A stretch of DNA of 64,000 nucleotides. Source: a bacterium. GTDB lineage: Bacteria; Patescibacteriota; Patescibacteriia; UBA1558; UBA10009. A model generated the notes under the pieces. The model had not been told where the DNA came from. It ran no database searches and saw only the letters and a program-made list of their open reading frames with translations. A program made the position numbers and the translations under genes. Where the stretch lies: positions 672,977 to 736,976 of the forward strand of contig JABHGM010000001.1 of NCBI GenBank assembly GCA_018672055.1, read 5' to 3'. Positions 8,002 to 63,582 of this stretch are shown here, piece after piece. Numbering within the stretch: position 1 is the stretch's first letter; each line of letters opens with the position of its first letter.

Positions 8002-8002
8002 A

Positions 8003-14965: not shown

Positions 14966-14992
14966 ATATTATATATATAGTATATTCTAACT

Positions 14993-15020
14993 AAAAACAA
15001 GAGTTCAAGCTCTTGTTTTT
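14993..15020. terminator. Bidirectional rho-independent terminator
   Basis: Near-perfect palindrome aaaaacaagag-ttcaag-ctcttgttttt with A/T runs on both sides, between the coiled-coil gene 3' end and the mnmA start. Confidence 0.65.
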
Positions 15021-15029
15021 AGACATATA

Positions 15030-38016: not shown

Positions 38017-38017
38017 G

Positions 38018-38467
38018 TTAATTATTTATTGATTTAATAAAATCCTCATAATTTCTAAAATAATCAGCTTCATCAAAGTAATCACTAGCTAGTACCAATA
38101 TTACACAATCTTTTGAAAAACTTGTCATCTCATGCCATAATTTTGGTCCTAGCCTAATACCAATATATGGATCATTCATTACTATTTCTTGTTTATTTGT
38201 ACCATCATCCAATTTAATCTTAAATGAACCATTTACACAAAAAATATACTGCTCTAACTTCTTATGAGCGTGTTTACCTCTAACTGATCTAAATCTATGT
38301 AAGTTATTTATAAAATAAACTCTTTTTATATCAAAAGGAACACTTTTCATAGATTCAGCTATTACTAAGTTACCATCAGGTTCATCATTAAAAAATTGTA
38401 ATTTAATTACACCCGAATTCTTTACTAAAATTTCAATATCTTTTTTCATACTATTTTTTACCAACAA
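38018..38467 (-). CDS. FdtA/QdtA (WxcM)-like cupin, predicted dTDP-4-keto-6-deoxyhexose 3,4-ketoisomerase
   Basis: RGKHAHKKLEQYIFCVNGSFKIKLDDG core (RGxHAHK motif of FdtA/QdtA); 149 aa. Confidence 0.7.
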   Translation of the reverse strand: MLVKNSMKKDIEILVKNSGVIKLQFFNDEPDGNLVIAESMKSVPFDIKRVYFINNLHRFRSVRGKHAHKKLEQYIFCVNGSFKIKLDDGTNKQEIVMNDPYIGIRLGPKLWHEMTSFSKDCVILVLASDYFDEADYFRNYEDFIKSINN

Positions 38468-39230
38468 TTAATATTTCAAAGCCAAATTTTTTAGAAAAAT
38501 ATCTATTTGTAAATTTATCTAAAAACTTAGTTATTCTATTAAACGCTTTACCTAGCAATTTAAATATACTATGTATATATTTTAATCTAAAAATTCCATA
38601 AGCAAAGTAAAAACCATCTTCATTAATTATTTCTAAACCAGCTTCATTATATAATCTACGTAATTCTTTCTTACTATATGATTTTTCATAACCGTAAGTA
38701 TATTCTTTTCTATGAAATAACTTATACAAAGTATGTGGTAAGTTAAATAAATTAACACCTGATACTATAATAACTCCACCTGGCTTTAAAATCTTTGTCA
38801 TTTCTTTAATAGCTTTCAAATCATTAGGTAAATGTTGTATAACTACATCGCTTATTATTAAATCAAAATAATCTTCTCTAAACTCTAAATTATATACATC
38901 TGCTTTTTTAACTTCAACATTAGTTAAATTCAATTCATTTTTTAATCTTTCGATAAATTTAACTGATGAATCAACAATATCAGTAATAGTAACTTGAGCA
39001 TCTGGAAATTCTTGAGCTATTTTTAAACCATATCTTCCAGTTCCACCACCAATTTCAATAACCCTATTAAAATTATTAGGAAAATGTTTTTTAAATACAG
39101 GATATCCTTCAATAAATAAGCGACTACTAAATATCATTTTAGGAGTAGTCTTGTCTTCTTGTTGCCATACTTTACTCCAAATATTATTTACTTGATCTTG
39201 TTTTATATGTTTTTCTTTAACCATAACCAT
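38451..39230 (-). CDS. Class I SAM-dependent methyltransferase
   Basis: Motif I VIEIGGGTGRYGLKIA, motif post-I ITDIV. Confidence 0.75.
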   Translation of the reverse strand: MVMVKEKHIKQDQVNNIWSKVWQQEDKTTPKMIFSSRLFIEGYPVFKKHFPNNFNRVIEIGGGTGRYGLKIAQEFPDAQVTITDIVDSSVKFIERLKNELNLTNVEVKKADVYNLEFREDYFDLIISDVVIQHLPNDLKAIKEMTKILKPGGVIIVSGVNLFNLPHTLYKLFHRKEYTYGYEKSYSKKELRRLYNEAGLEIINEDGFYFAYGIFRLKYIHSIFKLLGKAFNRITKFLDKFTNRYFSKKFGFEILIVGKK

Positions 39231-40702
39231 GATTCATAATATTTTCTACCAAATACTTTATCTAATAAATAAATTGAAATAAAATATATTATAATACCAA
39301 AAATAATATATAATACTAAAATAAAAGGATTAGTTATTAAAAATATACTTTTTAAAGTATGCATTATATTAAACATAATTAAACTTGCAATTATAGGTAA
39401 ACTAATTATATTAAAAAACCCCTTAAATCCTAATTTAATTGTATGTTTAATCTTAAAAAATAAAATTGACTGTGAAATAAGTAAACTACTAGCTACAGAT
39501 AAAGCAATACCAACAACTCCAAACATCTTGGCCAGTGGCACTATTAACGAGAACATTATAATTGATTGAATAGTTAAAATATATGTATTAATTTTAGGTT
39601 TTCCTATACCTAGAAATAATGGATTAACAATAAGTTCAAATGATCTAAGAATAGCTATTATTAATACAATGTTTAATATAGGAATCATAGCTGTCCACTT
39701 AGATCCATAAACTATATAAACAATTTCATTATTTAAAGTAAATATACCTATTAAAGCGGGAATAATGAATGCATAAAGAACTCTAAATAATCTTATAAAT
39801 GAACTTTTTAATAACTCAAGATCATTTTGAATTTTGGAAAAGAATGGAAATAAAACATTACCCATTACTTTAGATATTTCAGTTGATGGTAAAGTACCAA
39901 GTGATAAAGCTAAAGAATATAAACCAAGATCATATGTAGTAAGCAACTTACCTATCATAATAGCATCACCTTGTCTTGTGATAAAAGTAATAATTCCAGC
40001 AAGACCTATCCATTTGCCAAATTTAAATAATTGCTTAGTAACTTCTAAATTAAATTTAAATCTAGGTCTGTAAGAATGAAAAACATATGATAATATAATA
40101 TCTGCAAATTTACCAAAAGCAACACCTATTAATAATGCCCAAGGACTTCTTAAATAGAAAGCTGCTATTATTACAGCACTTATTTCAATAAATACAGCTG
40201 ATATATCATAGAAAAACTTTTTATTAAATCTCAACTCTTTATTTAATAAAATAACACCAATATTCTGGAATCCTTCAAAAAATACTATAATAGCTAAAAC
40301 CTTTATAAAAGGTATAACATTTATATTATTAAAAAATCCAGCTGCCAAATTAGGAGCTATAAAAAATAGAACTAAAGCAACTAAAGTATTACGTAAAATA
40401 TTTACAGTCCATGCTCCATTTAAATACTTACTATTTGATTCTTTATGATGAACTAATGCAGTATTAAAACCATGTTGAAATATTGTTCCGACAAATGTCA
40501 TTGTTAAACTTGCTAAACCGAATAAACCAAAATCTTCAGGAAATAAAAGTCTAGCCAAAATTATAGTTTTAATAAGTTGTAAACTTTTAATTAATACTCG
40601 GCTTAATAATACTAAAATACTGCCACGTGCAACCTGTTGACCAGTGTCATCAGTAGTTTTCCAAATATTAAAAAACCTATTTTTTAAATCTTTAAGCTTC
40701 AT
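39203..40702 (-). CDS. Wzx-type polysaccharide flippase (MOP superfamily)
   Basis: 499 aa with ~14 TM helices, the polysaccharide biosynthesis protein family architecture. Confidence 0.7.
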   Translation of the reverse strand: MKLKDLKNRFFNIWKTTDDTGQQVARGSILVLLSRVLIKSLQLIKTIILARLLFPEDFGLFGLASLTMTFVGTIFQHGFNTALVHHKESNSKYLNGAWTVNILRNTLVALVLFFIAPNLAAGFFNNINVIPFIKVLAIIVFFEGFQNIGVILLNKELRFNKKFFYDISAVFIEISAVIIAAFYLRSPWALLIGVAFGKFADIILSYVFHSYRPRFKFNLEVTKQLFKFGKWIGLAGIITFITRQGDAIMIGKLLTTYDLGLYSLALSLGTLPSTEISKVMGNVLFPFFSKIQNDLELLKSSFIRLFRVLYAFIIPALIGIFTLNNEIVYIVYGSKWTAMIPILNIVLIIAILRSFELIVNPLFLGIGKPKINTYILTIQSIIMFSLIVPLAKMFGVVGIALSVASSLLISQSILFFKIKHTIKLGFKGFFNIISLPIIASLIMFNIMHTLKSIFLITNPFILVLYIIFGIIIYFISIYLLDKVFGRKYYESWLWLKKNI

Positions 40703-41738
40703 TTTTTAATTGTTTTCTTTCATTTATAAATTCTATTCTGTTTTCTGGACAAATACTACACATACGATTTTGTCCACGATTAGTATTGATTTGATTTCTT
40801 AATTTATTATACCTACTACCTTTCCAGATTTTTTTAAGTGATGTTTCAAATACATTACCCATAATATATTGAGAAAATAAATCATAACAACAAGGTACTA
40901 CATCACCATTAACATTAATTGCTGCTACACCTAATACTTGATCACAATGATTTGTAATTTTACCCTTTAATATAAACTGATCATTTTCATCTTTCTCATA
41001 ACGACTAAACTTTTGATCATTTGGTAAAAATTTCTTAGCCATCAGCTGCATATCTGGTGTATCATAAAGAAATATAGTTTTAGCAGCAAAGATATCTACA
41101 CCTAATTCCTTAGCAAATTCTTCCATTCTTTCTTTTTGATGCTCATTATGTTTCATTACTAAAAACTGTAATTCAATTTTAGGTAACTTTGAATTAGCTT
41201 TTTTCTTTGTAGCCATCATCATTTTAATATTATTTACTTCATTTTCGTAATTAGCACCTACTCTATACTGTTCTAATGTTTCTTGGTCTAAACCATCTAA
41301 ACTAATTATTAAATGTTTTAATTTACTTTCAATTATTCCATCACATAACTCTTGTTTATCTAATAATTGAGCATTAGTACTCATCTTTACATTAATTCCA
41401 GCATCAGTTGCATACTTTGCCATTTTAAACACCTCATCATTTAATAATGGTTCACCATAGTTAAATAAAAACATCTTATTAACATAACCTCTTACTTGAT
41501 CAATAATATACTTAAATCTATCAAAACTCATTAGTTCTGGTTTTCTATTTAGTCTACCTGAACCCGTTGGACATAAAGGACATCTTAAATTACAATAATT
41601 TACTGGTTCAACAAGTAAAGTAAAAGGAAGAGGCGGTACCATATCTTTAACTCCAAGTTTTCTTAGTAACTTAAACCAGAATAAATCAAATTTACCTTGT
41701 ATTAATAACTTAATAGCATTCTTTATTTTATTTATCAT
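40692..41738 (-). CDS. Radical SAM enzyme with C-terminal SPASM-like Cys cluster
   Basis: CNLRCPLCP (Cx3Cx2C) radical-SAM cluster near the N-terminus. C-terminal cysteines (...HCDQV...VPCCYD...CSICP) are consistent with an auxiliary-cluster SPASM/twitch domain. Confidence 0.7.
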   Translation of the reverse strand: MINKIKNAIKLLIQGKFDLFWFKLLRKLGVKDMVPPLPFTLLVEPVNYCNLRCPLCPTGSGRLNRKPELMSFDRFKYIIDQVRGYVNKMFLFNYGEPLLNDEVFKMAKYATDAGINVKMSTNAQLLDKQELCDGIIESKLKHLIISLDGLDQETLEQYRVGANYENEVNNIKMMMATKKKANSKLPKIELQFLVMKHNEHQKERMEEFAKELGVDIFAAKTIFLYDTPDMQLMAKKFLPNDQKFSRYEKDENDQFILKGKITNHCDQVLGVAAINVNGDVVPCCYDLFSQYIMGNVFETSLKKIWKGSRYNKLRNQINTNRGQNRMCSICPENRIEFINERKQLKNEA

Positions 41739-42643
41739 ATTAATATATCATTTATTTTTAATTTATTAGTTGACTCATAGTCATTTATTATTAGTAATCC
41801 ATCTTTTAACTTAATAACTGGTTTATCATCTATTACTTTTACTACTTCACCTATTTTACCATCTATATCCTCTTCATGTATTAAAGCTTTCCAAATAGTA
41901 ACTTTATTCTCTTTATTATAGCAGAAAGCGCCAGGAAATGGTTTAGTAACACCTCTAATTAAATTATATATTTCTCTTAACGTATTATTAAAATCAATTT
42001 TACCATCAGAAGGAGTTCGTTTAGGATAGTATGTTGACTTACCAGACTGCTTAGTTAATTTAATATTATTCTCTTTATATGCAGTTAATAGTTCTTTTAA
42101 TTGAACTTTAGCAGTTTCAATAGATTTTTCTTGTAGATTTGATATATCATCTAACTCTTCAATATTAAAATCCATAATATTAAATATAGGGCCTTCATCA
42201 GCACCAGTACCATATTTAAATAAATGATTATGAATTACTTTTCTATCTTCGATAATAGACCAATTAAGTGGTGACCTACCTTTACCTTCTGGTAAATACT
42301 TAGAACTACCATGAAAACCAAATACACCTGACTCAAATTTACTTAATATATTATCTGGTATTAAACGTTGCCAACCATATGATATTCCTATACTAAATTC
42401 ATTTGAATTAAAAAATTCTAAATCCTTTTTATCTTTTAGCTCATAATCATTTAATGCCAAATATTCAATATTATATTTAGAAGCTATACCTCTTAAATTC
42501 TGAAAACCTGATATATGATGCTTTTTAACACACTCTTCATCTAAAGAAACTAATAGATCTATTTTATAGCCTTCACTAATTAAATAATCAATTACTTTCG
42601 AAGAAGTACTCTTAACACCAAAAAATGTAATATTATATTTCAT
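41735..42643 (-). CDS. Formyltransferase-family protein, predicted sugar N-formyltransferase
   Basis: FHGSSKYLPEGKGRSPLNWSII matches the N10-formyl-THF transferase catalytic motif (cf. ArnA/Fmt HGSLLPxxRGxAPxNW). It sits beside FdtA-like and DegT genes. Confidence 0.65.
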   Translation of the reverse strand: MKYNITFFGVKSTSSKVIDYLISEGYKIDLLVSLDEECVKKHHISGFQNLRGIASKYNIEYLALNDYELKDKKDLEFFNSNEFSIGISYGWQRLIPDNILSKFESGVFGFHGSSKYLPEGKGRSPLNWSIIEDRKVIHNHLFKYGTGADEGPIFNIMDFNIEELDDISNLQEKSIETAKVQLKELLTAYKENNIKLTKQSGKSTYYPKRTPSDGKIDFNNTLREIYNLIRGVTKPFPGAFCYNKENKVTIWKALIHEEDIDGKIGEVVKVIDDKPVIKLKDGLLIINDYESTNKLKINDILI

Positions 42644-42645
42644 AA

Positions 42646-43407
42646 CTATTTATATAACTTTCTGAAACTTTGACAATCATGTTTCATAGTTTCAATAAAC
42701 TCTGTACTCTTTTGTTTAATTAAAATATCAAAAGCATCTAAATTTTCCTTATACCCTTCATTTGACCATTCATATGCGTGTGTCAATAACTGAGCTTTTT
42801 TAATATCATCATTAATCATATCTAGTGGATAGCCATAAGGCCATCTTTTTTCTGGTAACTTATTTGATTCAGCTAAATACAAAACATCTAATTTTTTATC
42901 TGCATCATCACCATTATATGTAAAGAACTCACTATTATATGGATTAATTATCCCTTCAATCCTAATATCTTTCTCTAAGACAGCTACTGGTGGTCTATGA
43001 TATGAAAAACGATCAATCTTCATGCCTAAACCATTTTCCATAACTTCAATTTCATTTTTAATTATTTTAGCGTAATCATTACCAGTTTTACTTTCTAAAT
43101 AAATATGTAAACCAATCTTATGACCTAATTTATGAATTTCATTTATTAAATCATGATTACTCTTTGAGAATATATTATATGCATTATTTCTAAGTTGAAC
43201 AAAGTAACTTGTTGAAATTCCCATTTCATTTGCTTCAAACTTTGCAAATTCATAGGCTCTTTCTATTGAAAACTCAACATCATGTCTTAAAACTAAAAAC
43301 TTTTCAGTTTCTTTATTAATCTCTGAATAATCCATTAAAGGTAAATACTTAGTAAGCCCTTCAATTATATTTTTATATTCTCCATACGAGAATGATTCTT
43401 TAAGCAT
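42646..43407 (-). CDS. Hypothetical protein (possible divergent deacetylase/hydrolase-like)
   Basis: 253 aa; the His/Asp-containing segments LRHDVEF and HKIGLH weakly recall metal-dependent hydrolases, but no firm family assignment. Confidence 0.35.
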   Translation of the reverse strand: MLKESFSYGEYKNIIEGLTKYLPLMDYSEINKETEKFLVLRHDVEFSIERAYEFAKFEANEMGISTSYFVQLRNNAYNIFSKSNHDLINEIHKLGHKIGLHIYLESKTGNDYAKIIKNEIEVMENGLGMKIDRFSYHRPPVAVLEKDIRIEGIINPYNSEFFTYNGDDADKKLDVLYLAESNKLPEKRWPYGYPLDMINDDIKKAQLLTHAYEWSNEGYKENLDAFDILIKQKSTEFIETMKHDCQSFRKLYK

Positions 43408-45276: not shown

Positions 45277-46304
45277 AACTCATTTATTAATTTATTTACT
45301 ATTATCTTTGATAAACACTTTTCTTTAAACAATTTATATCCATTATCAGCTATATCTCCTCTTAACTTACTATCATTCCTAAGTAATAGTATTTTTTCTA
45401 CTAAATCTTTACTATCTGCCTGATTACATAATAATATATTTTCTTTATCTTTAAATAATTCATTAATTGCAGGAGTATTAGCAGTAATAACTGCCTTTTG
45501 CATAGCTATTGCTTCATATACTTTATTTGGTATTACTCTAGTTGTTTTTTGACCCTTTCCAAATATACCTAAACAAATATCAGATTGACTAATATACTTT
45601 GTTAAATCGGAATATGATTGCTTCGAAATAAAATTTATATTATTTACATCTAACTTACTAGCTAGTTTAATTATTTTATCATGTTCTTGCCCAGAACCAA
45701 CTAAATTAAATTTAATATCCTTATATTCTTCTAAAGCTTTAGCTGCTTCAATAATATATTCTATTCCTTGCAATGGAATATATTTACCATGGAAATGAAT
45801 TACAAAACTATTACTTTGTTCTTTAACTTTTGGCAAAAAAACAGATTCATCACTACCAACTAATACTTTAATATATTTATTTCCTCCAAAAGTCGTTTTA
45901 AAATATTTAATATGCTCATTTGTATCAAGTAATACTTTATTTGCTAACTTAATACTTAACCAATCAAGCAACCAATAATACTTAGATTTAAAACTATTTC
46001 TAGAAACTAACTTCTTATCATTAACCCAAGAATCATATAATGAATAAAAAGCATCCCAAATAATTGGTTTATTACTTATTAACTTAGCAATAGGTACCAT
46101 AAATTGATTATCTGAATAACCAACTATTAATTGATCGTATTTATTTTCAACATCTTTATGTTTATTAATTAACTCTTTAATACTCTTAGCATTAACAAAA
46201 AGTACTTCTATATTATTCTCCTTAAAACCTTTTATTAAAACTCTATTCCTAGAATAATTAGGATCAAAATCTCCAAAATAACATATTGTATTTATACTAC
46301 TCAT
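45273..46304 (-). CDS. Glycosyltransferase, group 1-like (GT-B)
   Basis: GT-B fold pattern; 343 aa; overlapping boundaries with both neighbours. Confidence 0.6.
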   Translation of the reverse strand: MSSINTICYFGDFDPNYSRNRVLIKGFKENNIEVLFVNAKSIKELINKHKDVENKYDQLIVGYSDNQFMVPIAKLISNKPIIWDAFYSLYDSWVNDKKLVSRNSFKSKYYWLLDWLSIKLANKVLLDTNEHIKYFKTTFGGNKYIKVLVGSDESVFLPKVKEQSNSFVIHFHGKYIPLQGIEYIIEAAKALEEYKDIKFNLVGSGQEHDKIIKLASKLDVNNINFISKQSYSDLTKYISQSDICLGIFGKGQKTTRVIPNKVYEAIAMQKAVITANTPAINELFKDKENILLCNQADSKDLVEKILLLRNDSKLRGDIADNGYKLFKEKCLSKIIVNKLINEL

Positions 46305-47743
46305 TAATTTGCTTCTTTCTTTTTAATAAAAAACGATAGTAAAGCTTTAAAACCAGATGATAATATCTTTAAATCATCAAGTGATCTTATGCTAAGTAAT
46401 TTTTTAAAAATATACTTAGGTCTAAAGTAGAATCTTCGATACATGTGCTTATACAACTTCTTAATTTCATCAGCTGTTAAATTTTCTAATCTCATAACTG
46501 GCTTAGCTAAAGTGTAATCATCCCATTCATAGGTTAAAATTAAATCTTTAGACTTTGCCCAATCAAACATATCAGTTCCAGGAAAAGGTGTAGTAATATT
46601 TACAACAATTAAATCTGGATCCATTTTAATTGCAAACTTAGTATTTTTCTTTAAAATTTCCATATTATCTCCAGGGTTACCTACCATAAATGCTAAACGA
46701 CATTCTATACCAACTTGCTTAGTCCATTTAACTGCATTTTTAACTTGATCAATATTTATTTTCTTATTTATATTTCTTAAAACGCCTTCATCAACATTTT
46801 CTACACCATACATAATCTGATGGCAGCCAGAATCTTTCATCTTCTGAAGCATTTCTTTATCAATAAAATCTACTCTAGCAAAACAAGTCCATGATATATC
46901 AATATTATTTTCAAGTAATAGATCACATAACTTAACTACATTCTCTTTAAAAACAGTAAATGTATCATCATAGAAAAGTATTTGCTTTATGCCCCAATTA
47001 TCTATTAAATACTTAATCTCTTTAAATATAACCTCAGCTGATTTAAAAACTAATATATTACCTAAAGTCTTACTACAAAAAGTACATCTTCCAGGACAGC
47101 CACGTGAAGTCATCATGCTCATTGCTGGTAACCTTTTATATGAGCCTTTAGCTGGCTTATACTTTAGAACTGGTAATAAATCATATGCAGGAATTGGTAA
47201 TTCATCTAGCTTCATTATTCTATTTCTTGGCTTATTCTTAATTACTTCACCATCTTTCTTGTAAACAATGCCATCTATTTCTGAAAGTTCTTTTCCTTTA
47301 ACTATTTCAGTAACAGTTAATTCACCTTCACCAATTACTACAATATCAACACTTTCTTTAGCAATAACTTCATCAGTTACAAAAGTAGCATGAACTCCAC
47401 CAAACATTACTACAGCATCAGGATAATATTTTTTACATATCTCAGAAATTAAATATGCCTTTTTTATTGTACAAGTCATAGCAGTTAATCCAATATATTT
47501 AATTGACTCATACTTATTAACAAATTCTTTCTCAAAATACTCAGAAAATGATTCAACAGAAGGAGAATATACATTACAATCAACTATCTTAACTGAAAGA
47601 TCTTGCTCTCTTAAATAACCAGCAATAAAAGCTAATCCAAGAGGTGGAAAATTTGAATTAATTTCCTTCCATATATTTTCCTTATCTTCGTAAAATATGG
47701 GAGGAGATATTAATAAGCAATCAAGTTGTTTCTTCTCATTCAT
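46304..47743 (-). CDS. B12-binding domain radical SAM enzyme (class B rSAM)
   Basis: N-terminal cobalamin-binding-like Rossmann region (LDCLLISPP...PPLGLAFIAGYL) followed by MTSRGCPGRCTFC (Cx3? non-canonical CxxxxCxxC spacing of class B rSAM) and a TIM-barrel region. Confidence 0.75.
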   Translation of the reverse strand: MNEKKQLDCLLISPPIFYEDKENIWKEINSNFPPLGLAFIAGYLREQDLSVKIVDCNVYSPSVESFSEYFEKEFVNKYESIKYIGLTAMTCTIKKAYLISEICKKYYPDAVVMFGGVHATFVTDEVIAKESVDIVVIGEGELTVTEIVKGKELSEIDGIVYKKDGEVIKNKPRNRIMKLDELPIPAYDLLPVLKYKPAKGSYKRLPAMSMMTSRGCPGRCTFCSKTLGNILVFKSAEVIFKEIKYLIDNWGIKQILFYDDTFTVFKENVVKLCDLLLENNIDISWTCFARVDFIDKEMLQKMKDSGCHQIMYGVENVDEGVLRNINKKINIDQVKNAVKWTKQVGIECRLAFMVGNPGDNMEILKKNTKFAIKMDPDLIVVNITTPFPGTDMFDWAKSKDLILTYEWDDYTLAKPVMRLENLTADEIKKLYKHMYRRFYFRPKYIFKKLLSIRSLDDLKILSSGFKALLSFFIKKKEAN

Positions 47744-51393: not shown

Positions 51394-52857
51394 TTACCTA
51401 ATTAAATTTCTTGTTTCCTGACCTTTTGTTAGATGTGCATAGAAATAATAACCAGCATCATCAAATGATTTATACTTTATAGAATCTTTTATTGCGCCAT
51501 AAACAGCATCAATATTTTTTAAAGCAAATATTGAAAGATTAAATAAAAATTTTGGATTTTTAAAGAAGAACATAATATTATTCCATCTAACCTGTTTTAA
51601 AAATTTATTCCTATAAACTTCTAAAGTATGATGATCTAAATTAACTCTCCAAATCTTATTAGCTCTGACATACCATTTAGACATATCATTCTCAATAATC
51701 CTATCCTCTTTAATTGCTTGTTCATAAAGTTCTGAAGCTGGATAAGGTGTAGCAAAGTAAGCTGTTGAAAAATCAATATCAAGATCAGCAACTAAATTAA
51801 TAGTATCCATTAAATTTTCAATCTTGTCATCAGGAAATCCAAAAATAAATGAAGCCTGAGCTCTTAAACCAATTTTTTTTGTTAATCTAAGAGCATCTTT
51901 AATCTTATTTATATCAACATTCTTTTTAATTGCTTTTAAAACTGGTACTGAACCACTTTCAACTCCATATTCTACTTGAACACAACCAGCTCTTTTAACA
52001 GCTCTTAAGATTCTTTCATTAACTGTATCTACCCTGCCGTAACATGAAAATTTAATATTAAATTTCTTAGCAATGAATTTATCACTAAACTCTTCTATCC
52101 ATTCTGTATTCATTAAAAATGTATCATCCATAAAGTATAAGCTATCAATATTATGCTCCTTAATCATGAATTCAATTTCACTAATAACACTATCAACTGT
52201 TCTCCTTCTATACATTTTATTATATAAATAATTAACTCCACAATAAGTACATCTTCCAGGACAACCTCTACTGGTTGATAAATTAGCTGATCTTTCTGTC
52301 CAAACACCACGAATTAGACCTGGTGGTTGTAAATATGTATCATAATTAACAAGCTCTCTAGCTGGGAAAGGCATTTCATCTAAATCAGGAATAAGCTCTC
52401 TTGGTAAATTAATTGAAATTTGATCACCGTTTCTATATATTAAACCTCTAATATCTGACATATCAGTTTTTTTAGAATCAATTGCATTACAAAGCTCATT
52501 CATAGTAATCTCACCTTCACCATATACAATATAATCAATATTATTTTCTTCTAAAAACTTTTGCTTAAAATATGATGGATGAATTCCACCAGCAACAATT
52601 GGAAGATCTGGTCTATCATTTTTAAGCTTTTTAAAAATCTTTTGAGCAAAACGAAGTTGTGGTGTTGTTATACTAACACCAATAATATCAGCTTCTTGAA
52701 CTTTAGGATGATCAAGTAAATCAAAATCATTATCTTTAATATCTAAAAAGGTTACATTATGTCCCTGACTCTTAATATATGAAGCTACATAACCAAGTCC
52801 GAGTGGGAAAAAATTTAAATTTATATCTCTAGGATAAATTAAGCAAACGTTTGCCAT
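51394..52857 (-). CDS. B12-binding domain radical SAM enzyme (class B rSAM), second copy
   Basis: ANVCLIYPR...FPLGLGYVASYI B12-like domain plus TSRGCPGRCTYC cluster; a paralog of the 46304 gene. Confidence 0.75.
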   Translation of the reverse strand: MANVCLIYPRDINLNFFPLGLGYVASYIKSQGHNVTFLDIKDNDFDLLDHPKVQEADIIGVSITTPQLRFAQKIFKKLKNDRPDLPIVAGGIHPSYFKQKFLEENNIDYIVYGEGEITMNELCNAIDSKKTDMSDIRGLIYRNGDQISINLPRELIPDLDEMPFPARELVNYDTYLQPPGLIRGVWTERSANLSTSRGCPGRCTYCGVNYLYNKMYRRRTVDSVISEIEFMIKEHNIDSLYFMDDTFLMNTEWIEEFSDKFIAKKFNIKFSCYGRVDTVNERILRAVKRAGCVQVEYGVESGSVPVLKAIKKNVDINKIKDALRLTKKIGLRAQASFIFGFPDDKIENLMDTINLVADLDIDFSTAYFATPYPASELYEQAIKEDRIIENDMSKWYVRANKIWRVNLDHHTLEVYRNKFLKQVRWNNIMFFFKNPKFLFNLSIFALKNIDAVYGAIKDSIKYKSFDDAGYYFYAHLTKGQETRNLIR

Positions 52858-56691: not shown

Positions 56692-57807
56692 TTAAACATG
56701 AATAATATCTAATATTTTTTTTACTCTATTTTCCCAAGTAAACTTCTTAACAAATTCATAACCATTTTCAATCTCTTTATCATTATTTTTAATTAATATA
56801 TTATTTATTTTATTTACTAAATCTTCTACATTATCAACTTCATAAAAAGTTACTTCCTTATTAGTTACTATATTTGTCATACTCTCAACTTCAGGAGCTA
56901 AAACCGGAACCTTAGAAGCTAAATATTCAAATAATTTTATAGGTGAAGTATATTTAATTGATTCTTTACTATTTTTATTTGCAGTTATAATTAAAATATC
57001 TGCTGACTTTAAATATTTAGCAACCATGTCTCTCTTTTTAGTATTTACAAGCTTAATATTTGATAAATTATTTATTATTTCTTTATCTAATAAATCAGTA
57101 CCACCAGCTAATACCAATTCAATATTATTATCTAATTTTTCAGCTGCTTTTAATAATATGTCAGTTCCTTTCCAGGTATAGTAATGACCTAAATACATTA
57201 CAATTTTCTTATCATTAGATAAATCTAATTCATCTCTTAATTCATTTTTAGTCTTTTGAATCGAGTCAAAATCATTTAATTCAACACCATTAGGACAACT
57301 ATGTACATTAGTAAAGTTATTTTCTAAAAATTCATCTTTAGTACCTATTGAATTAGTAATTATTAAATCAGCTTTTTTACTTAACTTAAAAAATAATTTT
57401 TGATTACTTTCTGGTATAAAATGACATTCAAATATAGTCCTATAACCTATCTTAGCAAAGTACCAAGCTATTAAAACTTCTCTAGTATATATAGTTAATT
57501 CTCTTGAATTGAATAGATATCTAAATGATAATGATATAAGGAAAGTAACCTGCTTAACTAGATATGTAAATTTTGGAAATATCTTATTTAAAAATTTTAA
57601 ATCAATTACTAAATACTTTTTAATATCAAAATTCTTACTAACACCATAATAACTAAATGTTTCTTCTTTAATACAATTTCTAAAATTAGGTATTACTAAT
57701 TCAATATCAACTCCCATCTTTGAAAATTTTTCACAAGTTCTAATTATTTGATAACCTCTAGCTTTTTCAGTAGGTATTCTAGAATTAGTTATATACTCAA
57801 TCTTCAT
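56692..57807 (-). CDS. Family 4 glycosyltransferase
   Basis: GT-B architecture with ...KLFEYLASKVPVLAPEV C-terminal motif. Confidence 0.65.
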   Translation of the reverse strand: MKIEYITNSRIPTEKARGYQIIRTCEKFSKMGVDIELVIPNFRNCIKEETFSYYGVSKNFDIKKYLVIDLKFLNKIFPKFTYLVKQVTFLISLSFRYLFNSRELTIYTREVLIAWYFAKIGYRTIFECHFIPESNQKLFFKLSKKADLIITNSIGTKDEFLENNFTNVHSCPNGVELNDFDSIQKTKNELRDELDLSNDKKIVMYLGHYYTWKGTDILLKAAEKLDNNIELVLAGGTDLLDKEIINNLSNIKLVNTKKRDMVAKYLKSADILIITANKNSKESIKYTSPIKLFEYLASKVPVLAPEVESMTNIVTNKEVTFYEVDNVEDLVNKINNILIKNNDKEIENGYEFVKKFTWENRVKKILDIIHV

Positions 57808-58424
57808 ATATCTAGATTATTAGTTATTTCTAAAAACACTTCATCAATATCTCTATTTGCATCAACTATTTTTACTTTACAAGGCAAGCTAGGAAATAGC
57901 TTTTTAAAAGTTACAAAATTAGTACGAACTACTTCTTTCCATTTTTTTAAATACTCAGCAGTTAAAAATGGTCTAGTAAAATGCCCACGCTTTTCAATTC
58001 TAGAATCTAACACATCATAAGGTGCTTCAAAAAATATTAGTAAGTCAGGAAATAATAAATATTTAGAATATTTTTTAATTTCTTCCTCTGTTACTTCTCG
58101 TTCAAATATAGATCCAACACTCTGCATAAAACCTTGATCTAATAAAGCTAAATCATATTTTGTAGCTTTTTCAAACTTCGCATTAGTATTTAAAAATACA
58201 TTCATGAATTTAAAATAGAACATTTTAAAAGAAACTGAGTTTCTAAATACATATATTAAACGTACAATGAATTTAATAGGATGCTTAATAAGAAATAACA
58301 AGTTATACCAAATAAGTTCATACTTATTATCAATTCTAATTCTTTGTATATTCTTTTCACCTACTAATCTTCTAGCAATTGTAGATTTACCAGTTCCTGG
58401 TAAACCAGAAAATTCAATAATCAT
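57804..58424 (-). CDS. P-loop NTPase of unknown function (kinase/sulfotransferase-like?)
   Basis: Walker A FSGLPGTGKSTIARRL at residues 5-20; 206 aa; no further family motif recognised. Confidence 0.45.
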   Translation of the reverse strand: MIIEFSGLPGTGKSTIARRLVGEKNIQRIRIDNKYELIWYNLLFLIKHPIKFIVRLIYVFRNSVSFKMFYFKFMNVFLNTNAKFEKATKYDLALLDQGFMQSVGSIFEREVTEEEIKKYSKYLLFPDLLIFFEAPYDVLDSRIEKRGHFTRPFLTAEYLKKWKEVVRTNFVTFKKLFPSLPCKVKIVDANRDIDEVFLEITNNLDI

Positions 58425-59182
58425 TACTTTTTAAATTTAATAGCGTAAGACTCTGATAAAAAACCACTTAATTTATTCAAAGGGAGTCTATATAATATAA
58501 AGTGGACTAGCCTATTTATTATATTTGATTTAAATACAGGTACAGAAATAGTAACAGGATATTCTGTTACTTCTCTAAAACCTACTTCTTTAAATATACA
58601 TTTTAATCTACATGCTTTAACTTGACCTTGATGCATTCTAGAATTCTTTCTTTTAAGAAGCTTATTAATAAAATCCTTAGGAGTTTTAGTAATTAAATAC
58701 CCCTCACCATTATTATTCAACATATCAAATATTTTCTTTACTGCTTCTTGCTTGTCTGGAATATATTCTAAAACTCTTGAGGAAAAGAAAACATCATACT
58801 TTTTATTTGGTATATAATCTAAAAAATTAGAAACAGTATAATCTATATCATTAAAATCTTTTAAATTATTCTTAGCTTGCTCTAACATATTTTCTGAGAC
58901 ATCAACAAGCTTCAAACTATCAAATTCACTATTCTCATGCATTACACGAGTCCAAGTTCCAGCACCAGGACCTAGTTCAAAATAGCTTCCTTTAAACTTT
59001 TTACCATTTAAAAAATGACCTTTAATTGCTTTAAGAGTCATTATATAGCCTGTTTTTGCAGGGCTAGATTTAAACCAACGATGATATTCGTAGTTTTCCA
59101 CATACTTATTTTTGGCTAAGTTATCGTATTTTTTTTGTATTTGTTGTGTATCCATATAGTCAAAATATTGAATATTATACAA
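58424..59182 (-). CDS. Class I SAM-dependent methyltransferase
   Basis: YFELGPGAGTWTRVM motif I; 252 aa. Confidence 0.7.
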   Translation of the reverse strand: MYNIQYFDYMDTQQIQKKYDNLAKNKYVENYEYHRWFKSSPAKTGYIMTLKAIKGHFLNGKKFKGSYFELGPGAGTWTRVMHENSEFDSLKLVDVSENMLEQAKNNLKDFNDIDYTVSNFLDYIPNKKYDVFFSSRVLEYIPDKQEAVKKIFDMLNNNGEGYLITKTPKDFINKLLKRKNSRMHQGQVKACRLKCIFKEVGFREVTEYPVTISVPVFKSNIINRLVHFILYRLPLNKLSGFLSESYAIKFKK

Positions 59183-59287
59183 TATTTTAGATAATTTATC
59201 AAATTATTTTTATATTTTATCCCCATTTATTATACATTGACTTTTAATTATATATAATTATAATACATTATGTAATATATTAAACAT

Positions 59288-59512
59288 ATGACTAAAAATC
59301 ATAATAAATACACTACTATCTCTATACCTGTTCAGCTTAATGAAAAGCTGAAAGATCTAATAAAGGATACTGGTTTTAATTCAGCATCTTCTTTTGTTAC
59401 TTATGTCTTAAGACAAATTGTTTCAGAAGGAGTTAATTCAAAAGAAGGCTTTACTAAATCAGATGAACAAAAGGTAAAAGATAGATTAAAAAGTCTAGGC
59501 TACTTAAAATAG
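59288..59512 (+). CDS. Small ribbon-helix-helix (CopG/Arc-like) protein
   Basis: TISIPVQLNEKLKDLIKDTGFNSASSFVTYVLRQIV fits a beta-strand, helix, helix RHH DNA-binding fold; 74 aa, 2 nt before cysD. Confidence 0.4.
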   Translation: MTKNHNKYTTISIPVQLNEKLKDLIKDTGFNSASSFVTYVLRQIVSEGVNSKEGFTKSDEQKVKDRLKSLGYLK

Positions 59513-59513
59513 T

Positions 59514-60317
59514 ATGGATCATTTAGATGAGCTAGAAAATAAATCAATATATATTATTAGAGAAGCTTTTCATGATTTTAAAGACATGGCTCTTTTATGG
59601 TCTATTGGTAAAGACTCGACTACCCTACTTTGGCTTTGCATGAAAGCTTTTTTTGGTAAACTACCTTTTCCAGCAGTTCACATTGACACTACTTTTAAGT
59701 TTCCTGAAATGTATGAGTTTCGCGATAAGTACGCTAAAGAGTTTAATTTAAACTTAATTGTTGGTAAAAATGAAGAAGCTTTAAAAAAAGGAGTGAATTA
59801 CCAAGACACTGATACTTTTGAATGCACTCACCTCTTAAAAACAGAAGCTTTAAAACAAACTATTGCAAAACATAAGTTTAAAGCATTATTAGTTGGTATA
59901 AGACGTGATGAACATGGTATTAGAGCTAAAGAAAGATACTTTTCACCTAGAAATAAAGATTTTAAATGGAATTACAAAGATCAACCTGCAGAACTATGGG
60001 ATCAATATAAGTCAAAAGCAGAAGAAGATGTTCATTTAAGAGTTCATCCTCTACTCCATTGGACTGAACAAGATATTTGGGAATATACTAAGCGAGAAAA
60101 TATTCCAGTTAACAAACTTTACTTTGCAAAAGATGGTAAACGTTTTAGAAGTTTAGGTTGTATGCCAATTACTAAACCAATTAAATCAGAAGCAGATACA
60201 ATAGATAAAGTAATTGAAGAAATTAAAAATACCAAAGAAGCAGAAAGAGCAGGCAGATTACAAGATAAAGAACAAGCAAATACTATGGAAAAATTAAGAA
60301 GCTTAGGTTACATGTAA
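59514..60317 (+). CDS. cysD: Sulfate adenylyltransferase subunit 2
   Basis: PAPS-reductase-like PP-loop (SIGKDSTTLLWL) and full-length CysD/NodP similarity; 267 aa. Confidence 0.85.
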   Translation: MDHLDELENKSIYIIREAFHDFKDMALLWSIGKDSTTLLWLCMKAFFGKLPFPAVHIDTTFKFPEMYEFRDKYAKEFNLNLIVGKNEEALKKGVNYQDTDTFECTHLLKTEALKQTIAKHKFKALLVGIRRDEHGIRAKERYFSPRNKDFKWNYKDQPAELWDQYKSKAEEDVHLRVHPLLHWTEQDIWEYTKRENIPVNKLYFAKDGKRFRSLGCMPITKPIKSEADTIDKVIEEIKNTKEAERAGRLQDKEQANTMEKLRSLGYM

Positions 60318-60318
60318 T

Positions 60319-61524
60319 ATGATAAAAGAATATTTAAAATTTGTAATAGTTGGACATGTTGATCACGGTAAGTCTTCTTTAATTGGCAGATTACTTTTTG
60401 ATACTAAGTCTATTCCACAAGAAAAAATAGATGAAGTAAAAACCGTTTGCGAAGCACTAGGCAAAGACTTTGAATTCTCTTACCTCATGGATTATTTAAC
60501 TGAGGAAAGAGAAAAAAATATTACTATAGATACAACGCAAACTTTTTTTAAAACTAAACAAAGAGATTACGTTATTATAGATGCTCCAGGACATAAGGAA
60601 TTTTTAAAAAACATGATAACTGGTTCTTCTCTAGCAGAAGCTGCCATACTTATTGTAGATGCTGATGAAGGTATAAAAGAACAAACTAAAAGACATGCAT
60701 ACCTATTAAACCTACTTAATTTAAAACAAATAATTGTTGTTATAAATAAAATGGATTTAGTAGATTACCAAGAAAAACGTTTTAAAGAAGTAGAACAAGA
60801 AGTAATAACTCATTTAAATAAACTTAATTTAAAACCAAACTATATTATCCCCATATCTGCTAAAAATGGTGATAATATAGCTACTAAGGATAATAATTTA
60901 AATTGGTTTCAAGGTCCAACTGTTTTAGATGCTCTAGATTCATTTACTAATCAATTTCAAGAAGAAAACCTTCCTTTAAGACTCCCCGTACAAGATATCT
61001 ATGAAGATATGGTAGTTGGTAGAATTGAGAGTGGTAAGATAGAAAAAAACCAAGAAATTACTATTTTACCTAGTAATGTGAGTAATAAAGTATTATCCAT
61101 TAAAAAGTGGCGTGAAGAGCTAGATTTAGCTTCTTACGGACATTCAATTGGTTTAAAGTTAGATGATATACAAGTTAAAAGAGGTCAGATTATATGTGAT
61201 AAAGATAACTTACCTCAAGTAGTAAATAATTTTAAAGCAACTATATTTTGGATGAGTAGTAATGAAATAAAAGTAAATGAAATAGTATCTCTTAAAATAG
61301 TTACTCAAGAACAAGATGTAGTAATTAAAAAAATCCATAAACTTATGGACTCCTCTACTTTAGAAGAAATAGATGGTGATGTTATAAAAGAAACATATAT
61401 TGCAGAAGTAGAATTTAAATCAGATAAACCACTCGTAATCGAGAATTATAATAAGATACCAGAAATGGGTAGATTTGTTTTAATACAAAATGAAGATATT
61501 GTAGCTGGTGGAATTATAGTATAA
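60319..61524 (+). CDS. cysN: Sulfate adenylyltransferase subunit 1 (GTPase), without fused APS-kinase domain
   Basis: GHVDHGKSSLIGRLL G1, DAPGHKEF, NKMDL motifs and EF-Tu-like domains II/III; 401 aa. Confidence 0.85.
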   Translation: MIKEYLKFVIVGHVDHGKSSLIGRLLFDTKSIPQEKIDEVKTVCEALGKDFEFSYLMDYLTEEREKNITIDTTQTFFKTKQRDYVIIDAPGHKEFLKNMITGSSLAEAAILIVDADEGIKEQTKRHAYLLNLLNLKQIIVVINKMDLVDYQEKRFKEVEQEVITHLNKLNLKPNYIIPISAKNGDNIATKDNNLNWFQGPTVLDALDSFTNQFQEENLPLRLPVQDIYEDMVVGRIESGKIEKNQEITILPSNVSNKVLSIKKWREELDLASYGHSIGLKLDDIQVKRGQIICDKDNLPQVVNNFKATIFWMSSNEIKVNEIVSLKIVTQEQDVVIKKIHKLMDSSTLEEIDGDVIKETYIAEVEFKSDKPLVIENYNKIPEMGRFVLIQNEDIVAGGIIV

Positions 61525-61553
61525 AAAAATCGCCGAGTGTATTACTCGACGAT
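61523..61553 (-). terminator. Terminator-like hairpin after the NUDIX gene (minus orientation)
   Basis: cgagt-gtatt-actcg with extended outer pairing, and an A7 on plus (U-run on the minus transcript). Confidence 0.45.
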
Positions 61554-61570
61554 CAATAAGTATATTTACT

Positions 61571-62134
61571 TTAATGTAAATGACGCTTAAGAACTTTCCG
61601 TTCAATTATTCTATTGGCAAGATATTGAACATATTCAGGGAAGTTTGTATTTACAAAATCAATGTCTTTATGAAAAGAAAATGAATCAAACCATTTAAGC
61701 GAAGTATGCTCATAATTATGTGTAATATCTTCCGCTTTAAACATTTCAGTAACAGATAATAGAAGCATATGTGGCCAAGCACTATCATGACGAGTTTCAT
61801 CTCCATCACAAGCCATAGTCATATAAGGAAGATCTAAATAATCAAATCTTTCAGATTCATACTTTAATCCAAGTTCTTCTTCTATTTCCCTACTGCATGT
61901 TTCTCCAGGTTCTTCAAATGCATTAATAACACCACCAGGAAAGCACCACATACCTTTAAACGGATCAATTGCTCTTTTTCCAAGTAAAAACTTACCATCT
62001 GCAGAAACAATTATCACATCGACAAAACTAATTGATACTGAGTTTAAAATCTTTCTCCAATCCTTATCAGAAAAATAAACTCTTTCTACTTCAGGTTTTT
62101 TTCCTGTTATAAAACAAGGTACTTTATTTGCCAT
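61571..62134 (-). CDS. NUDIX hydrolase
   Basis: Nudix box GGVINAFEEPGETCSREIEEELGL (Gx5Ex7REUxEExGU). Confidence 0.8.
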   Translation of the reverse strand: MANKVPCFITGKKPEVERVYFSDKDWRKILNSVSISFVDVIIVSADGKFLLGKRAIDPFKGMWCFPGGVINAFEEPGETCSREIEEELGLKYESERFDYLDLPYMTMACDGDETRHDSAWPHMLLLSVTEMFKAEDITHNYEHTSLKWFDSFSFHKDIDFVNTNFPEYVQYLANRIIERKVLKRHLH

Positions 62135-62875: not shown

Positions 62876-62904
62876 AAAGGACTTCCTAAAAGTCCTTTTT
62901 TTTA
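62876..62904. terminator. Bidirectional rho-independent terminator
   Basis: aaaggactt-cctaa-aagtccttt followed by T8. Serves the convergent 62333 (+) and deacetylase (-) genes. Confidence 0.65.
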
Positions 62905-63582
62905 TATCCATTTCTTAAAATCGTAACATCCTTTAAACCATAGATTAAATATCCAATTCGGAGTATCTACATCTAAAGAATCTCTATGTAATTTATATGA
63001 ATTACTTTTTTTATTATTAAAACCAGGTATTATACTAAAAGCGTATTTATAATTCTCACTTACTTTATTTATTACTTCCTTATTATAACTCTTCTTATCA
63101 CCAAAAGGATATGCAAAGTAATCAGATGGTACACTACCAGCTACTTCTTGATTTAATTCTTCATCATTTATCTTAGTTAAATACTTATGTGACATACTAT
63201 GACCACCTAAGGTATGACCTTTTTCTGTTAATAAGCTACTATACTCTTTAAAATCATCGTTAATAAAAAATAATGCTTTAATAGAGTATTTATCTAATAC
63301 TGGTAATATATATTCTAACCAATTACTATACCCATCATCAAAAGTAAATAATATATTTAATTTCTTTTTATCTAAGTTATTACTTTTAAAATCATCAATA
63401 CTTATTATATTATACTTACTCTTTAAGTACTTAACCTTTTCTTCAAACTTCCCTACTTCACTTTCTTTAATATCATGTAAACACCAAATACGTAGTAAAG
63501 GTTTATTAAGCATAATCCTTCTTAAAAAAGGTATACCTGTTAAGTAAAATAGTATTATTAAGATGTTACGTAATTTATTCAT
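62902..63582 (-). CDS. Polysaccharide deacetylase (NodB-homology, CE4) family protein
   Basis: N-terminal TM/signal, FTFDDGYSNW (motif 1 TFDDG) and GGHSMSH (His motif). Confidence 0.75.
   Translation of the reverse strand: MNKLRNILIILFYLTGIPFLRRIMLNKPLLRIWCLHDIKESEVGKFEEKVKYLKSKYNIISIDDFKSNNLDKKKLNILFTFDDGYSNWLEYILPVLDKYSIKALFFINDDFKEYSSLLTEKGHTLGGHSMSHKYLTKINDEELNQEVAGSVPSDYFAYPFGDKKSYNKEVINKVSENYKYAFSIIPGFNNKKSNSYKLHRDSLDVDTPNWIFNLWFKGCYDFKKWI

Follow-up and report, generated by a model that had tools for sequence, protein, structure and literature searches.

The window analysed here, a 64-kb stretch of contig JABHGM010000001.1 from a member of the Patescibacteria (GC content of about 26%), contains two divergent gene sets within a cell-envelope glycan locus: an ATP sulfurylase cassette and a module that includes an orphan P-loop gene. 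With a LepA identity of 76-77%, Candidatus Komeilibacteria is the neighbouring group of the organism within the Patescibacteria; the window matches positions 251,140-315,139 of a 525-kb metagenome contig, and more than 125 assembly blocks contain identical proteins. The cassette, on the plus strand, encodes a ribbon-helix-helix (RHH)-like leader protein of 74 aa that is predicted to be an autorepressor (59288-59512), CysD, the catalytic subunit of ATP sulfurylase, of the short type (267 aa; 59514-60317), and CysN, the GTPase subunit, without an adenosine 5'-phosphosulfate (APS) kinase domain (401 aa; 60319-61524); these three genes are spaced 1 nt apart. On the minus strand, the genes for a NodS-like class I S-adenosylmethionine (SAM) methyltransferase (58424-59182; matches to PF08242, PF08241 and PF05401), a 206-aa protein that is a predicted glycan or sugar kinase with the fold shared by deoxynucleoside kinases (dNK), nucleoside monophosphate (NMP) kinases and thymidylate kinases (TMK) (57804-58424), and, third in the module, a GT4/GT1 glycosyltransferase (GT) (56692-57807; PF00534, 60.8 bits) overlap one another (TAATG and ATGA). 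The methyltransferase probably starts at the ATG at 59155 (243 aa), in agreement with the call in the source contig. The P-loop, RHH-like, CysD and CysN open reading frames (ORFs) were all found at the positions given in the original prediction, which had been made from the sequence without database searches. We read the two gene sets, with a probability of about 0.6, as independent accessory modules placed back to back in the glycan locus; claims of function beyond family membership rest here on sequence, predicted structure and gene context.

ATP sulfurylase, the RHH-like leader and its predicted operator

CysD scores 360.3 bits against NF003587 (cutoff 195) and 159.8 bits against PF01507 (cutoff 22.5), and aligns over nearly its full length with the Pseudomonas syringae CysD structure 1ZUN_A (E=1.2e-66), with an intact PP-loop (SIGKDS) and the motifs HIDT, RRDE...RAKER and FRSLGC. 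The protein falls below the cutoffs of two stricter models (TIGR02039, 271.9 vs 396.6; NF009214, 290.6 vs 413), as would be expected of a divergent, short subtype, and lacks about 25 residues at 1ZUN positions 233-259. CysN matches 1ZUN_B (E=9e-71) with the GTPase motifs G1, G3 and G4 intact (GHVDHGKS, DAPGH and NKMD), reaches 340.0 bits with TIGR02034, barely above the cutoff of 336.1, and obtains similar scores with EF-1alpha models but under their cutoffs (353 vs 502). It ends at residue 401, shows no match to PF01583 and aligns only to positions 22-430 of the 632 positions of NF004035, so that the claim that it lacks a NodQ-type fused APS kinase holds. Given this family membership and the intact motifs, CysD and CysN can be considered an intact heterodimeric ATP sulfurylase, in which CysD would adenylylate sulfate to APS, with GTP hydrolysis on CysN as the driving force.

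The 74-aa leader protein has 24 close homolog clusters (56-97% identity), and homologs are annotated as CopG or Arc/MetJ-type proteins by JGI and NCBI; no match was found in Pfam or NCBIfam, and a phmmer search of the PDB gave no significant match. In the AlphaFold2 (AF2) monomer (pLDDT 74), an extended segment (residues 8-14) precedes helices at 15-24, 33-48 and 57-69, that is, a beta-alpha-alpha arrangement with a C-terminal helix. Foldseek with this model retrieved nothing significant, the best weak matches being a TCP domain and the ParD RHH domain (TM 0.53, E=4.4). The putative assignment to the RHH fold draws on the predicted topology, the source annotation and the operator.

The predicted operator is a 16-bp perfect palindrome, TAATTATATATAATTA (59245-59260); although the window is very AT-rich, it has no other exact TAATTA-N4-TAATTA. 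The palindrome sits inside the best sigma-70-like promoter, that of the RHH-cysD-cysN operon (plus strand, 59237-59264; TTGACT-16-TATAAT, 11 of 12 matches), and overlaps the spacer and the -10 box. A second sigma-70-like promoter (minus strand, 59174-59202; TTGATA-17-TATAAT, also 11/12) is assigned to the glycan operon that begins with the methyltransferase, kinase and GT4 genes; both promoters are consensus matches only. The -35 box and the spacer of the cassette promoter are kept in three related loci (L007, L009 and L011) whose intergenic regions have otherwise diverged. Within -160 to +30 of the RHH start, the exact operator is present in 40 of 72 loci and a version with relaxed half-sites in 58 of the 72, against a background of 4 exact matches over the other 1.0 Mb of these loci; the TAATTA elements often form phased 10-bp arrays. 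The operator is conserved across domains, from Archaea to Patescibacteria. Considering its position and conservation, the RHH protein would bind TAATTA-N4-TAATTA over the -35/-10 spacer of its own promoter and repress the operon until a sulfur-nucleotide or sulfate signal arrives. We are rather confident that the 74-aa protein is an RHH repressor that controls its own operon and is specific to sulfation operons; the earlier suggestion that it regulates cysD is, at the sequence level, strongly supported and extended by the cross-domain conservation of the operator.

The C-terminal tail of the RHH protein, ...RL[RK][AS]LGYL[DEK] (59486-59512), in which R66, L67, G71 and Y72 are invariant in a 16-sequence alignment, resembles the tail of the short 267-aa CysD, ...KLR[SA]LGYM (60291-60317); the archaeal 303-aa CysD keeps the canonical ...RKKEGYF. 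This likeness was observed across the RHH and CysD ORFs of loci L013-L092, and a CysD hidden Markov model (HMM) gives weak matches (9-10 bits) to some RHH ORFs. A CysN-specific role, with the RHH tail binding CysN as a mimic of the CysD tail, was rejected because the tail is equally conserved in 47 loci that encode the Sat-type sulfurylase and no CysN. A search of the literature on the CysD tail and on cysDN of the candidate phyla radiation (CPR) found nothing specific.

RHH-led sulfation operons

A scan of GTDB genomes identified 560 loci that encode the RHH protein, mostly from Archaea (Thermoplasmatota, DHVE2, Hadarchaeota, Asgard, Thermoproteota and Theionarchaea), with others from Chloroflexota and a few from Patescibacteria. 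Operon composition was counted in the best 80 of these 560 loci, with ORFs in the fetched loci called crudely, as the longest ORFs under table 11; the locus counts in this survey, as in those of the P-loop and PF01663 proteins below, are not phylogenetically independent. The sulfurylase is of the Sat type in 50 loci and of the CysDN type in 19, never both, and its gene typically comes directly after that for the RHH protein (Sat at +1 in 43/45, CysD at +1 in 17/19). Behind Sat, the operons encode a DHH phosphoesterase in 39 loci, an APS kinase in 49, a small Sulfotransfer_1 protein in 30 and a Na/sulfate symporter in 18; a canonical APS kinase is encoded in 41 of the 50 Sat loci, and some RHH loci have a PF01663 protein gene between those for the sulfurylase and the kinase. 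The identities of the gene clusters were confirmed by Pfam (PF01747, PF01583, PF01368, PF00685, PF13469, PF00939 and PF01663). The DHH enzyme is a relative of an experimentally characterised phosphatase of 3'-phosphoadenosine 5'-phosphate (PAP) (PMC10322725), and in Thermoplasmatota (Marine Group II archaea), CysDN together with CysC has been read as a supply of 3'-phosphoadenosine 5'-phosphosulfate (PAPS) for sulfotransferases (PMC6864105). A second gene of the PAPS_reduct family was found in none of the 80 RHH-led loci, and it is for this reason that we regard these operons as sulfation rather than reductive operons. RHH-cysD-cysN would then be a self-contained cassette, the CysDN version of a cross-domain 'sulfation operon', of which the archaeal version continues with PAP phosphatase, APS kinase, sulfotransferase and sulfate symporter.

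In 13 distinct loci of the Patescibacteria/Chloroflexota (CPR) type, the cassette, with the 267-aa CysD, lies inside a glycan cluster in every case. Its neighbours there include an ortholog of the window GT4 (10 loci; 31-42% identity), a methyltransferase (10), a convergent CE4 polysaccharide deacetylase (8) and a PF01663 protein (8); the recurrence of the GT4 and CE4 genes shows that the attachment of cysDN to the glycan locus, noted in the original prediction, is not due to chance. The CysD of the window is 61-88% identical to those of other Patescibacteria and Chloroflexota loci. In one of these relatives from Patescibacteria, L016, in which the RHH protein is 72% and CysD 75% identical to those of the window, a PF01583 APS kinase (182 bits; 7634-8173) and a Sulfotransfer_3 enzyme (96 bits) are encoded in the same operon as the GT4 ortholog; judging from these genes, this close relative has a full pathway for making a sulfated glycan.

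The corresponding genes were sought in the window together with about 15 kb of flanks (about 79 kb in total). The Pfam matches in this region include no APS_kinase, Sulfotransfer_*, second PAPS_reduct or sulfite reductase, which agrees with the previous statement that cysH and cysIJ are lacking in the window. Custom cluster HMMs run on the window at E<=10 with filters off detected no APS kinase or sulfotransferase, and a scan for the PAPS-binding (5'-phosphosulfate-binding, PSB) loop motif found no sulfotransferase. When the same approaches (Pfam at E<=1, cluster HMMs at E<=10, PSB-loop scan) were applied to the unannotated ORFs of the window, L007 and L010, no hidden sulfotransferase or APS kinase emerged. 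As no APS kinase, sulfotransferase, PAP phosphatase or PF01663 protein is encoded in the window or the flanks, the sulfation pathway is incomplete as seen here, and the APS kinase and the transferase would have to be encoded elsewhere or be non-canonical. Because the cassette is always embedded in glycan loci in Patescibacteria, it most probably serves envelope-glycan sulfation, for which it would supply activated sulfate; this is the weakest step of the proposed mechanism, and we put the chances that the organism sulfates its glycan at about even. Of the earlier proposal of a sulfated glycan produced via cysDN, the accessory relationship of cysDN to the glycan locus stands and L016 displays the complete set, but the route encoded in the window ends at APS.

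An alternative is that cysDN serves assimilatory sulfate reduction for cysteine synthesis, with cysC, cysH and sulfite reductase encoded elsewhere and the position in the glycan locus incidental. Many bacteria use CysDN as their standard enzyme for sulfate assimilation. In a few Patescibacteria, sat, cysC and cysN have been noted, but members of this group are generally unable to make amino acids (PMC12239599). The composition of the RHH-led operons, with sulfotransferases and PAP phosphatases in place of a second PAPS_reduct gene, and the location of the cassette in glycan loci in all 13 CPR-type cases also speak against assimilation, which we consider unlikely; the original view that cysDN is not part of an assimilatory operon is borne out by the same gene content.

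The other alternative concerns the product: APS, rather than PAPS, could be what matters, being used by a non-canonical transferase such as the PF01663 protein or, in the window, by an unrecognised enzyme. The argument comes from the relatives, where 8 of 14 short-CysD loci encode a PF01663 protein and a canonical APS kinase is present within 10 kb in L016 alone; moreover, the PF01663 gene is located in or directly after the RHH-cysDN operon in L020, L021, L037 and L047, and its anti-correlation with the genes for the DHH phosphatase and the small sulfotransferase (p of about 2e-6, from counts that are not phylogenetically independent) looks as if it replaced both. Yet, the window has no PF01663 homolog, and in archaeal loci, the PF01663 gene is placed between those for Sat and a canonical APS kinase, which implies that PAPS is made there. 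We also know of no sulfotransferase in the alkaline phosphatase superfamily. Use of APS as the end product thus seems doubtful. In its broadest form, this idea would make the RHH protein and the operator a single ancient switch, kept with either Sat or CysDN across Archaea, Chloroflexota and Patescibacteria, with APS itself as the sulfuryl donor to a non-canonical glycan sulfotransferase in Patescibacteria (the PF01663 partner of the relatives or an unrecognised enzyme); we regard it as a long shot.

The PF01663 protein itself (type I phosphodiesterase/NPP, alkaline phosphatase superfamily; about 460 aa) recurs in sulfate-activation loci (for example, L007 10512-11930, L014 14501-15910, L017 15397-16860, L020 14654-16198 and L083 11490-12878). 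With respect to the DHH PAP phosphatase, 5 loci encode both proteins, 37 the DHH enzyme only, 22 the PF01663 protein only and 11 neither (Fisher p=1.7e-6); the anti-correlation with the small sulfotransferase is similar (p=2e-6), both values again coming from phylogenetically non-independent counts. In Chloroflexota and CPR loci, the PF01663 gene comes after cysDN, with no APS kinase within 20 kb. The protein may act as an alternative phosphatase of PAP, or its role may be a more unusual one. Directly after the PF01663 gene of L017, a cysDN locus of the CPR type, lies a gene for a 166-aa AAA_33/KTI12-like P-loop kinase (14886-15386, minus strand), in the slot that the canonical APS kinase occupies in the archaeal operons with the order Sat, PF01663, APS kinase. 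This kinase scores 25 bits with the APS-kinase cluster HMM, has no PF01583 match, falls outside the family of the window P-loop protein and lacks a homolog among the window genes; of these two proteins, it makes the stronger candidate for a divergent APS kinase. The short-cysD cassette of the CPR type (67-88% identity) is also found in low-GC glycan loci of records labelled 'uncultured Gammaproteobacteria bacterium' or 'Candidatus Micrarchaeota archaeon' (L015, L017 and L022, in CAZSGB010000051, CAZPMS010000001 and CAZQLY010000029, respectively; L021, in JBDRCX010000006), a distribution that implies either unreliable taxonomic labelling or lateral transfer of the cassette.

The P-loop kinase and its methyltransferase-GT4 module

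The 206-aa P-loop protein shows only generic or sub-threshold kinase matches in Pfam and NCBIfam, with AAA_33 in the N-terminal part and dNK and Thymidylate_kin in the C-terminal part, the latter two below the gathering score of 27 (PF01712, 23.1; PF02223, 22.5). It shares the dNK/thymidylate-kinase fold, yet it is a member of neither curated Pfam family. A word-indexed search recovered 5 relatives, and an exhaustive profile search 1375 cluster representatives, 119 of these below 1e-30. Conserved in 40 sequences are the Walker A motif GLPGTGKST (GxPGxGK[ST]T in the family), D96xG98 and the LID signature R142xxxR146GxxxxR151. The AF2 model (pLDDT 84) matches deoxyadenosine kinase (2jas), AK5 (2bwj), TMK (2ccg) and UMP/CMP kinase (2ukd) with a Foldseek probability of 1.00 and TM of 0.5-0.63, and the top 50 Foldseek matches include no APS kinase and no sulfotransferase. 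In hhalign comparisons, the 40-sequence profile aligns over 165 columns with the TMK cluster but only over 22-32 Walker A columns with APS kinase; against both sulfotransferase clusters, the probability is below 1%, with no alignment. There is no PF01583 match, and the APS-kinase cluster HMM yields 12.6 bits, compared with 182 bits for the L016 kinase as a positive control.

Residues 34-87 (within 57906-58322) form a conserved, very hydrophobic and aromatic three-helix insert that replaces the NMP-binding domain and in which P49, N75, A82, K86 and A87 are nearly invariant in the 40 sequences; it is possible that the insert is a membrane-interface element or binds a lipid-linked glycan.

The genomic context of the family was surveyed in 80 metagenome loci (37 of at least 8 kb), examined up to 10 kb around the P-loop gene and collected with an N-terminal peptide pattern, a sampling that under-represents C-terminal fusions. 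A methyltransferase homolog is encoded directly upstream on the same strand in 64 of 75 loci, the P-loop ORF is fused to a glycosyltransferase in 28 of 80, and in 16 of 67 it is followed by a gene for a separate GT4 homolog. The fusions include P-loop-GT4 proteins (about 570-720 aa), methyltransferase-P-loop proteins (about 430-460 aa; P0126, P0132 and P0144) and a P-loop-methyltransferase-GT protein (792 aa), so the order of the methyltransferase, P-loop and GT4 genes in the window is the unfused form of a fused module. CysD, CysN, Sat or RHH was not found near the P-loop gene in any of the 80 family loci, and a true APS kinase was found near a single, distant member. Conversely, the P-loop protein is present in only 2 of the 13 CPR-type cassette loci and is missing in L015, the closest relative (88% CysD identity). 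The slot next to the GT4 gene is variable: it holds the methyltransferase and the P-loop protein in the window and L007, the methyltransferase and an APS kinase in L016, the methyltransferase only in L014 and a glycosyltransferase in L015. The unit that travels together is the methyltransferase-kinase pair.

The original prediction offered the 206-aa protein as a divergent APS kinase or a P-loop sulfotransferase; neither assignment survives, given a fold of the dNK/adenylate kinase/TMK kind and a full-length alignment with TMK only. As a non-orthologous APS kinase, the protein would turn the APS made by CysDN into PAPS for glycan sulfation. APS kinase belongs to the NMP-kinase-like fold group, and the P-loop protein is a genuine kinase with Walker A and LID motifs, encoded divergently adjacent to RHH-cysDN in the window, which has no canonical APS kinase, and in the same locus as the cassette in L007 and L008; in addition, the L016 APS kinase occupies the equivalent slot between the methyltransferase and the GT4 ortholog. 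Against this position-based case stand the lack of any ATP sulfurylase or RHH gene in the 80 family loci and the single true APS kinase among them, the presence of the P-loop gene in so few cassette loci, and the conservation and swapping of the methyltransferase and kinase as a unit rather than of the kinase alone. The profile alignment is limited to the Walker A segment, and the APS-kinase motifs LDGD..R, ISPY and FTG(I/V)D were not found in the protein, in line with the earlier remark that its motifs beyond Walker A do not resemble those of CysC. The fusions with GT4 and methyltransferase domains fit an enzyme that acts on glycans, not a nucleotide kinase. Identity as an APS kinase was therefore rejected as very improbable. 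The second assignment, a sulfotransferase of the P-loop type with APS or PAPS as its direct substrate, would agree with the glycosyltransferase and methyltransferase fusions, which are expected of a glycan-modifying enzyme; the NMP-kinase-like fold is also that of sulfotransferases, which bind PAPS with a loop related to the P-loop. Nevertheless, the protein has a Walker A of the canonical form GxxGxGK[ST]T, lacks the PSB loop [KR][ST]G[ST][ST], gives no match to the Sulfotransfer families in Pfam, none to sulfotransferases in Foldseek and none in hhalign, and does not co-occur with sulfate-activation genes; this assignment, also rejected, is barely credible. The profile comparison with PF01583 and the sulfotransferase families that had been proposed as a check thus came out negative except for the Walker A segment of APS kinase, and one half of what the original prediction had named as speaking against its hypothesis was found, because the protein was placed in an unrelated family of kinases.

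The P-loop protein is most likely an ATP-dependent kinase that phosphorylates a glycan residue, by analogy with methylphosphate cappers of the WbdD type. In this scheme, the methyltransferase, P-loop kinase and GT4 (59182-56692, minus strand) would be a translationally coupled module in which the kinase phosphorylates a sugar residue and the phosphate or a neighbouring hydroxyl is then methylated.

The surrounding glycan locus and related systems

Downstream of the cassette, a terminator-like hairpin (minus strand, 61528-61554; an 11-bp stem with 5 G-C pairs and a T-run; a consensus match only) lies between cysN and a convergent gene for a NUDIX hydrolase, a possible accessory gene (minus strand, 61571-62134; PF00293, 53.4 bits). 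About 14 archaeal loci, many of them from Thermoplasmatota (for example, L018 7655-8068), have a NUDIX homolog of cluster C12 (24-37% identity) at 1-1.5 kb upstream of the RHH gene; this recurrence could be no more than synteny, or the hydrolase could be functionally linked to the cassette, for instance by hydrolysing APS, PAPS or a nucleotide sugar. The next feature, the CE4 deacetylase gene (minus strand, 62902-63582; PF01522, 63 bits), is the most constant neighbour of the cassette in Patescibacteria, with orthologs (50-57% identity) convergent on cysN in L007-L014, L016, L017 and L019. To the right of the locus (L001 13267-21206, equivalent to about 63.6-71.5 kb of the window), there are genes for a 533-aa membrane protein without a family, a second small NUDIX protein, an HTH/SocA_Panacea antitoxin-like protein, several small orphan ORFs, and PDDEXK_1 and ResIII proteins; this region looks like a defence or mobile island that ends the glycan locus.

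On the other side, the main glycan locus has at its left edge the gene for an 888-aa DUF4012 protein (minus strand, 27656-30322), followed at 36913-43407 (minus strand) by genes for DegT-type aminotransferases, an FdtA-like isomerase, a formyltransferase (Formyl_trans_C) and a SPASM radical-SAM enzyme; a 253-aa ORF at 42646-43407 has no family match (Pfam, E<=1). Two B12-binding radical-SAM enzymes are encoded further along (46304-47743 and 51394-52857). This gene set suggests that the glycan may contain a 3-formamido-3,6-dideoxyhexose and unusual C-methylations. A second polysaccharide cluster, at the left end of the window (176-7482, minus strand), encodes a Wzy_C polymerase, a Wzx-type flippase, GT2 and GT4, and adjoins a block of ribosomal protein genes and rpoA.

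The cassette can be compared with several characterized systems. In rhizobial Nod-factor sulfation (NodP/NodQ with NodH) and in mycobacteria (CysDNC with Stf), a CysD/CysN-type sulfurylase is likewise encoded with glycan or glycolipid biosynthesis genes and supplies activated sulfate. NodQ and CysNC carry a fused APS kinase and have a sulfotransferase partner, whereas the CysN of the window, at 401 aa, has no kinase domain and neither a kinase nor a transferase is encoded nearby; to our knowledge, an RHH leader with an operator is not a feature of the nod or mycobacterial systems. The Methanothermococcus thermolithotrophicus cluster encodes an ATP sulfurylase, an APS kinase and a DHH-type PAP phosphatase (PMC10322725), the same enzymes that follow the RHH protein in 37-50 of the 80 loci. 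The M. thermolithotrophicus pathway ends in PAPS reduction, whereas the RHH-led operons have sulfotransferases and no reductase and the window only the CysDN step; an RHH regulator is not mentioned in that paper (PMC10322725), nor is the RHH protein mentioned in the other papers on archaeal sulfate activation that were searched.

Palindromic or tandem phased half-sites over the regulator's own promoter are the common operator logic of RHH proteins. The 74-aa protein shares with the MetJ, Arc and CopG repressors a predicted beta-alpha-alpha core of about 45 aa, a putative operator of this kind and the first-gene position, but differs from them in having no Pfam or NCBIfam RHH match, an extra C-terminal helix with the invariant RLRxLGY tail and an operator conserved from Archaea to Patescibacteria. 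The P-loop protein, in turn, shares with dNK, thymidylate and adenylate kinases the Walker A motif, the beta-4 strand PDLxI(F/Y)(F/L), the RxxxRGxxxR LID and the overall fold, but has the three-helix insert in place of the NMP/nucleoside-binding region and a glycan-synthesis context. In WbdD (Escherichia coli O9a and Klebsiella pneumoniae O3) and ORF6-O7 (K. pneumoniae O7), as in the module of the window, a SAM methyltransferase and a kinase are coupled to a polymerising glycosyltransferase (the GT4 WbdA or a fused GT2); the WbdD and ORF6-O7 kinases are themselves non-homologous, and such methyltransferase-kinase terminators can be fused to GT modules (PMC3482155; PMC11231755). Unlike these proteins, the window module has a kinase of the P-loop dNK/TMK fold, not of the eukaryotic-type or AmiN-like folds, no evident coiled-coil ruler, and, in its locus, a Wzx flippase instead of an ABC transporter with a carbohydrate-binding module. 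The likeness to WbdD is thus one of analogy, not of membership, and the methylphosphate product is a prediction.

Several observations weigh against two independent modules that serve sulfate activation and glycan phosphorylation. The canonical APS kinase of L016 sits in the same slot as the P-loop protein of the window (methyltransferase, X, GT4, with a 4-bp overlap), the pattern expected of non-orthologous replacement. Where capped O-antigen systems typically have an ABC transporter, the locus here encodes a Wzx-type flippase; a PDB search with the methyltransferase found no WbdD at E<=0.01, and the acceptor of the kinase and the target of the methyltransferase are only predicted. To these can be added the lack of genes for the steps after APS in the window and its flanks, the borderline TIGR02034 score of CysN together with its slightly higher score against archaeal EF-1alpha structures, and the leader protein, the RHH fold of which is unsupported by Pfam, NCBIfam and Foldseek and the DNA binding of which is a prediction.

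Nothing categorically new is involved; rather, specific functions can now be predicted for two uncharacterised families, those of the RHH leader and of the P-loop glycan kinase, and a tempting mis-annotation, in which the orphan P-loop gene beside cysDN is taken for cysC, is corrected. If the 74-aa protein has the role proposed here, it would be the first candidate regulator of archaeal PAPS/sulfation operons, and its simple, well conserved operator could define sulfation regulons directly from sequence. The P-loop family, with at least 1375 representatives that are annotated only as 'AAA family ATPase', would represent a third, structurally unrelated solution to methyltransferase-kinase modification or termination of glycans. 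For the Patescibacteria, which depend on contact with a host and the envelope glycans of which are essentially uncharacterised, a regulated sulfate-activation cassette in the glycan loci would predict sulfated surface glycans.

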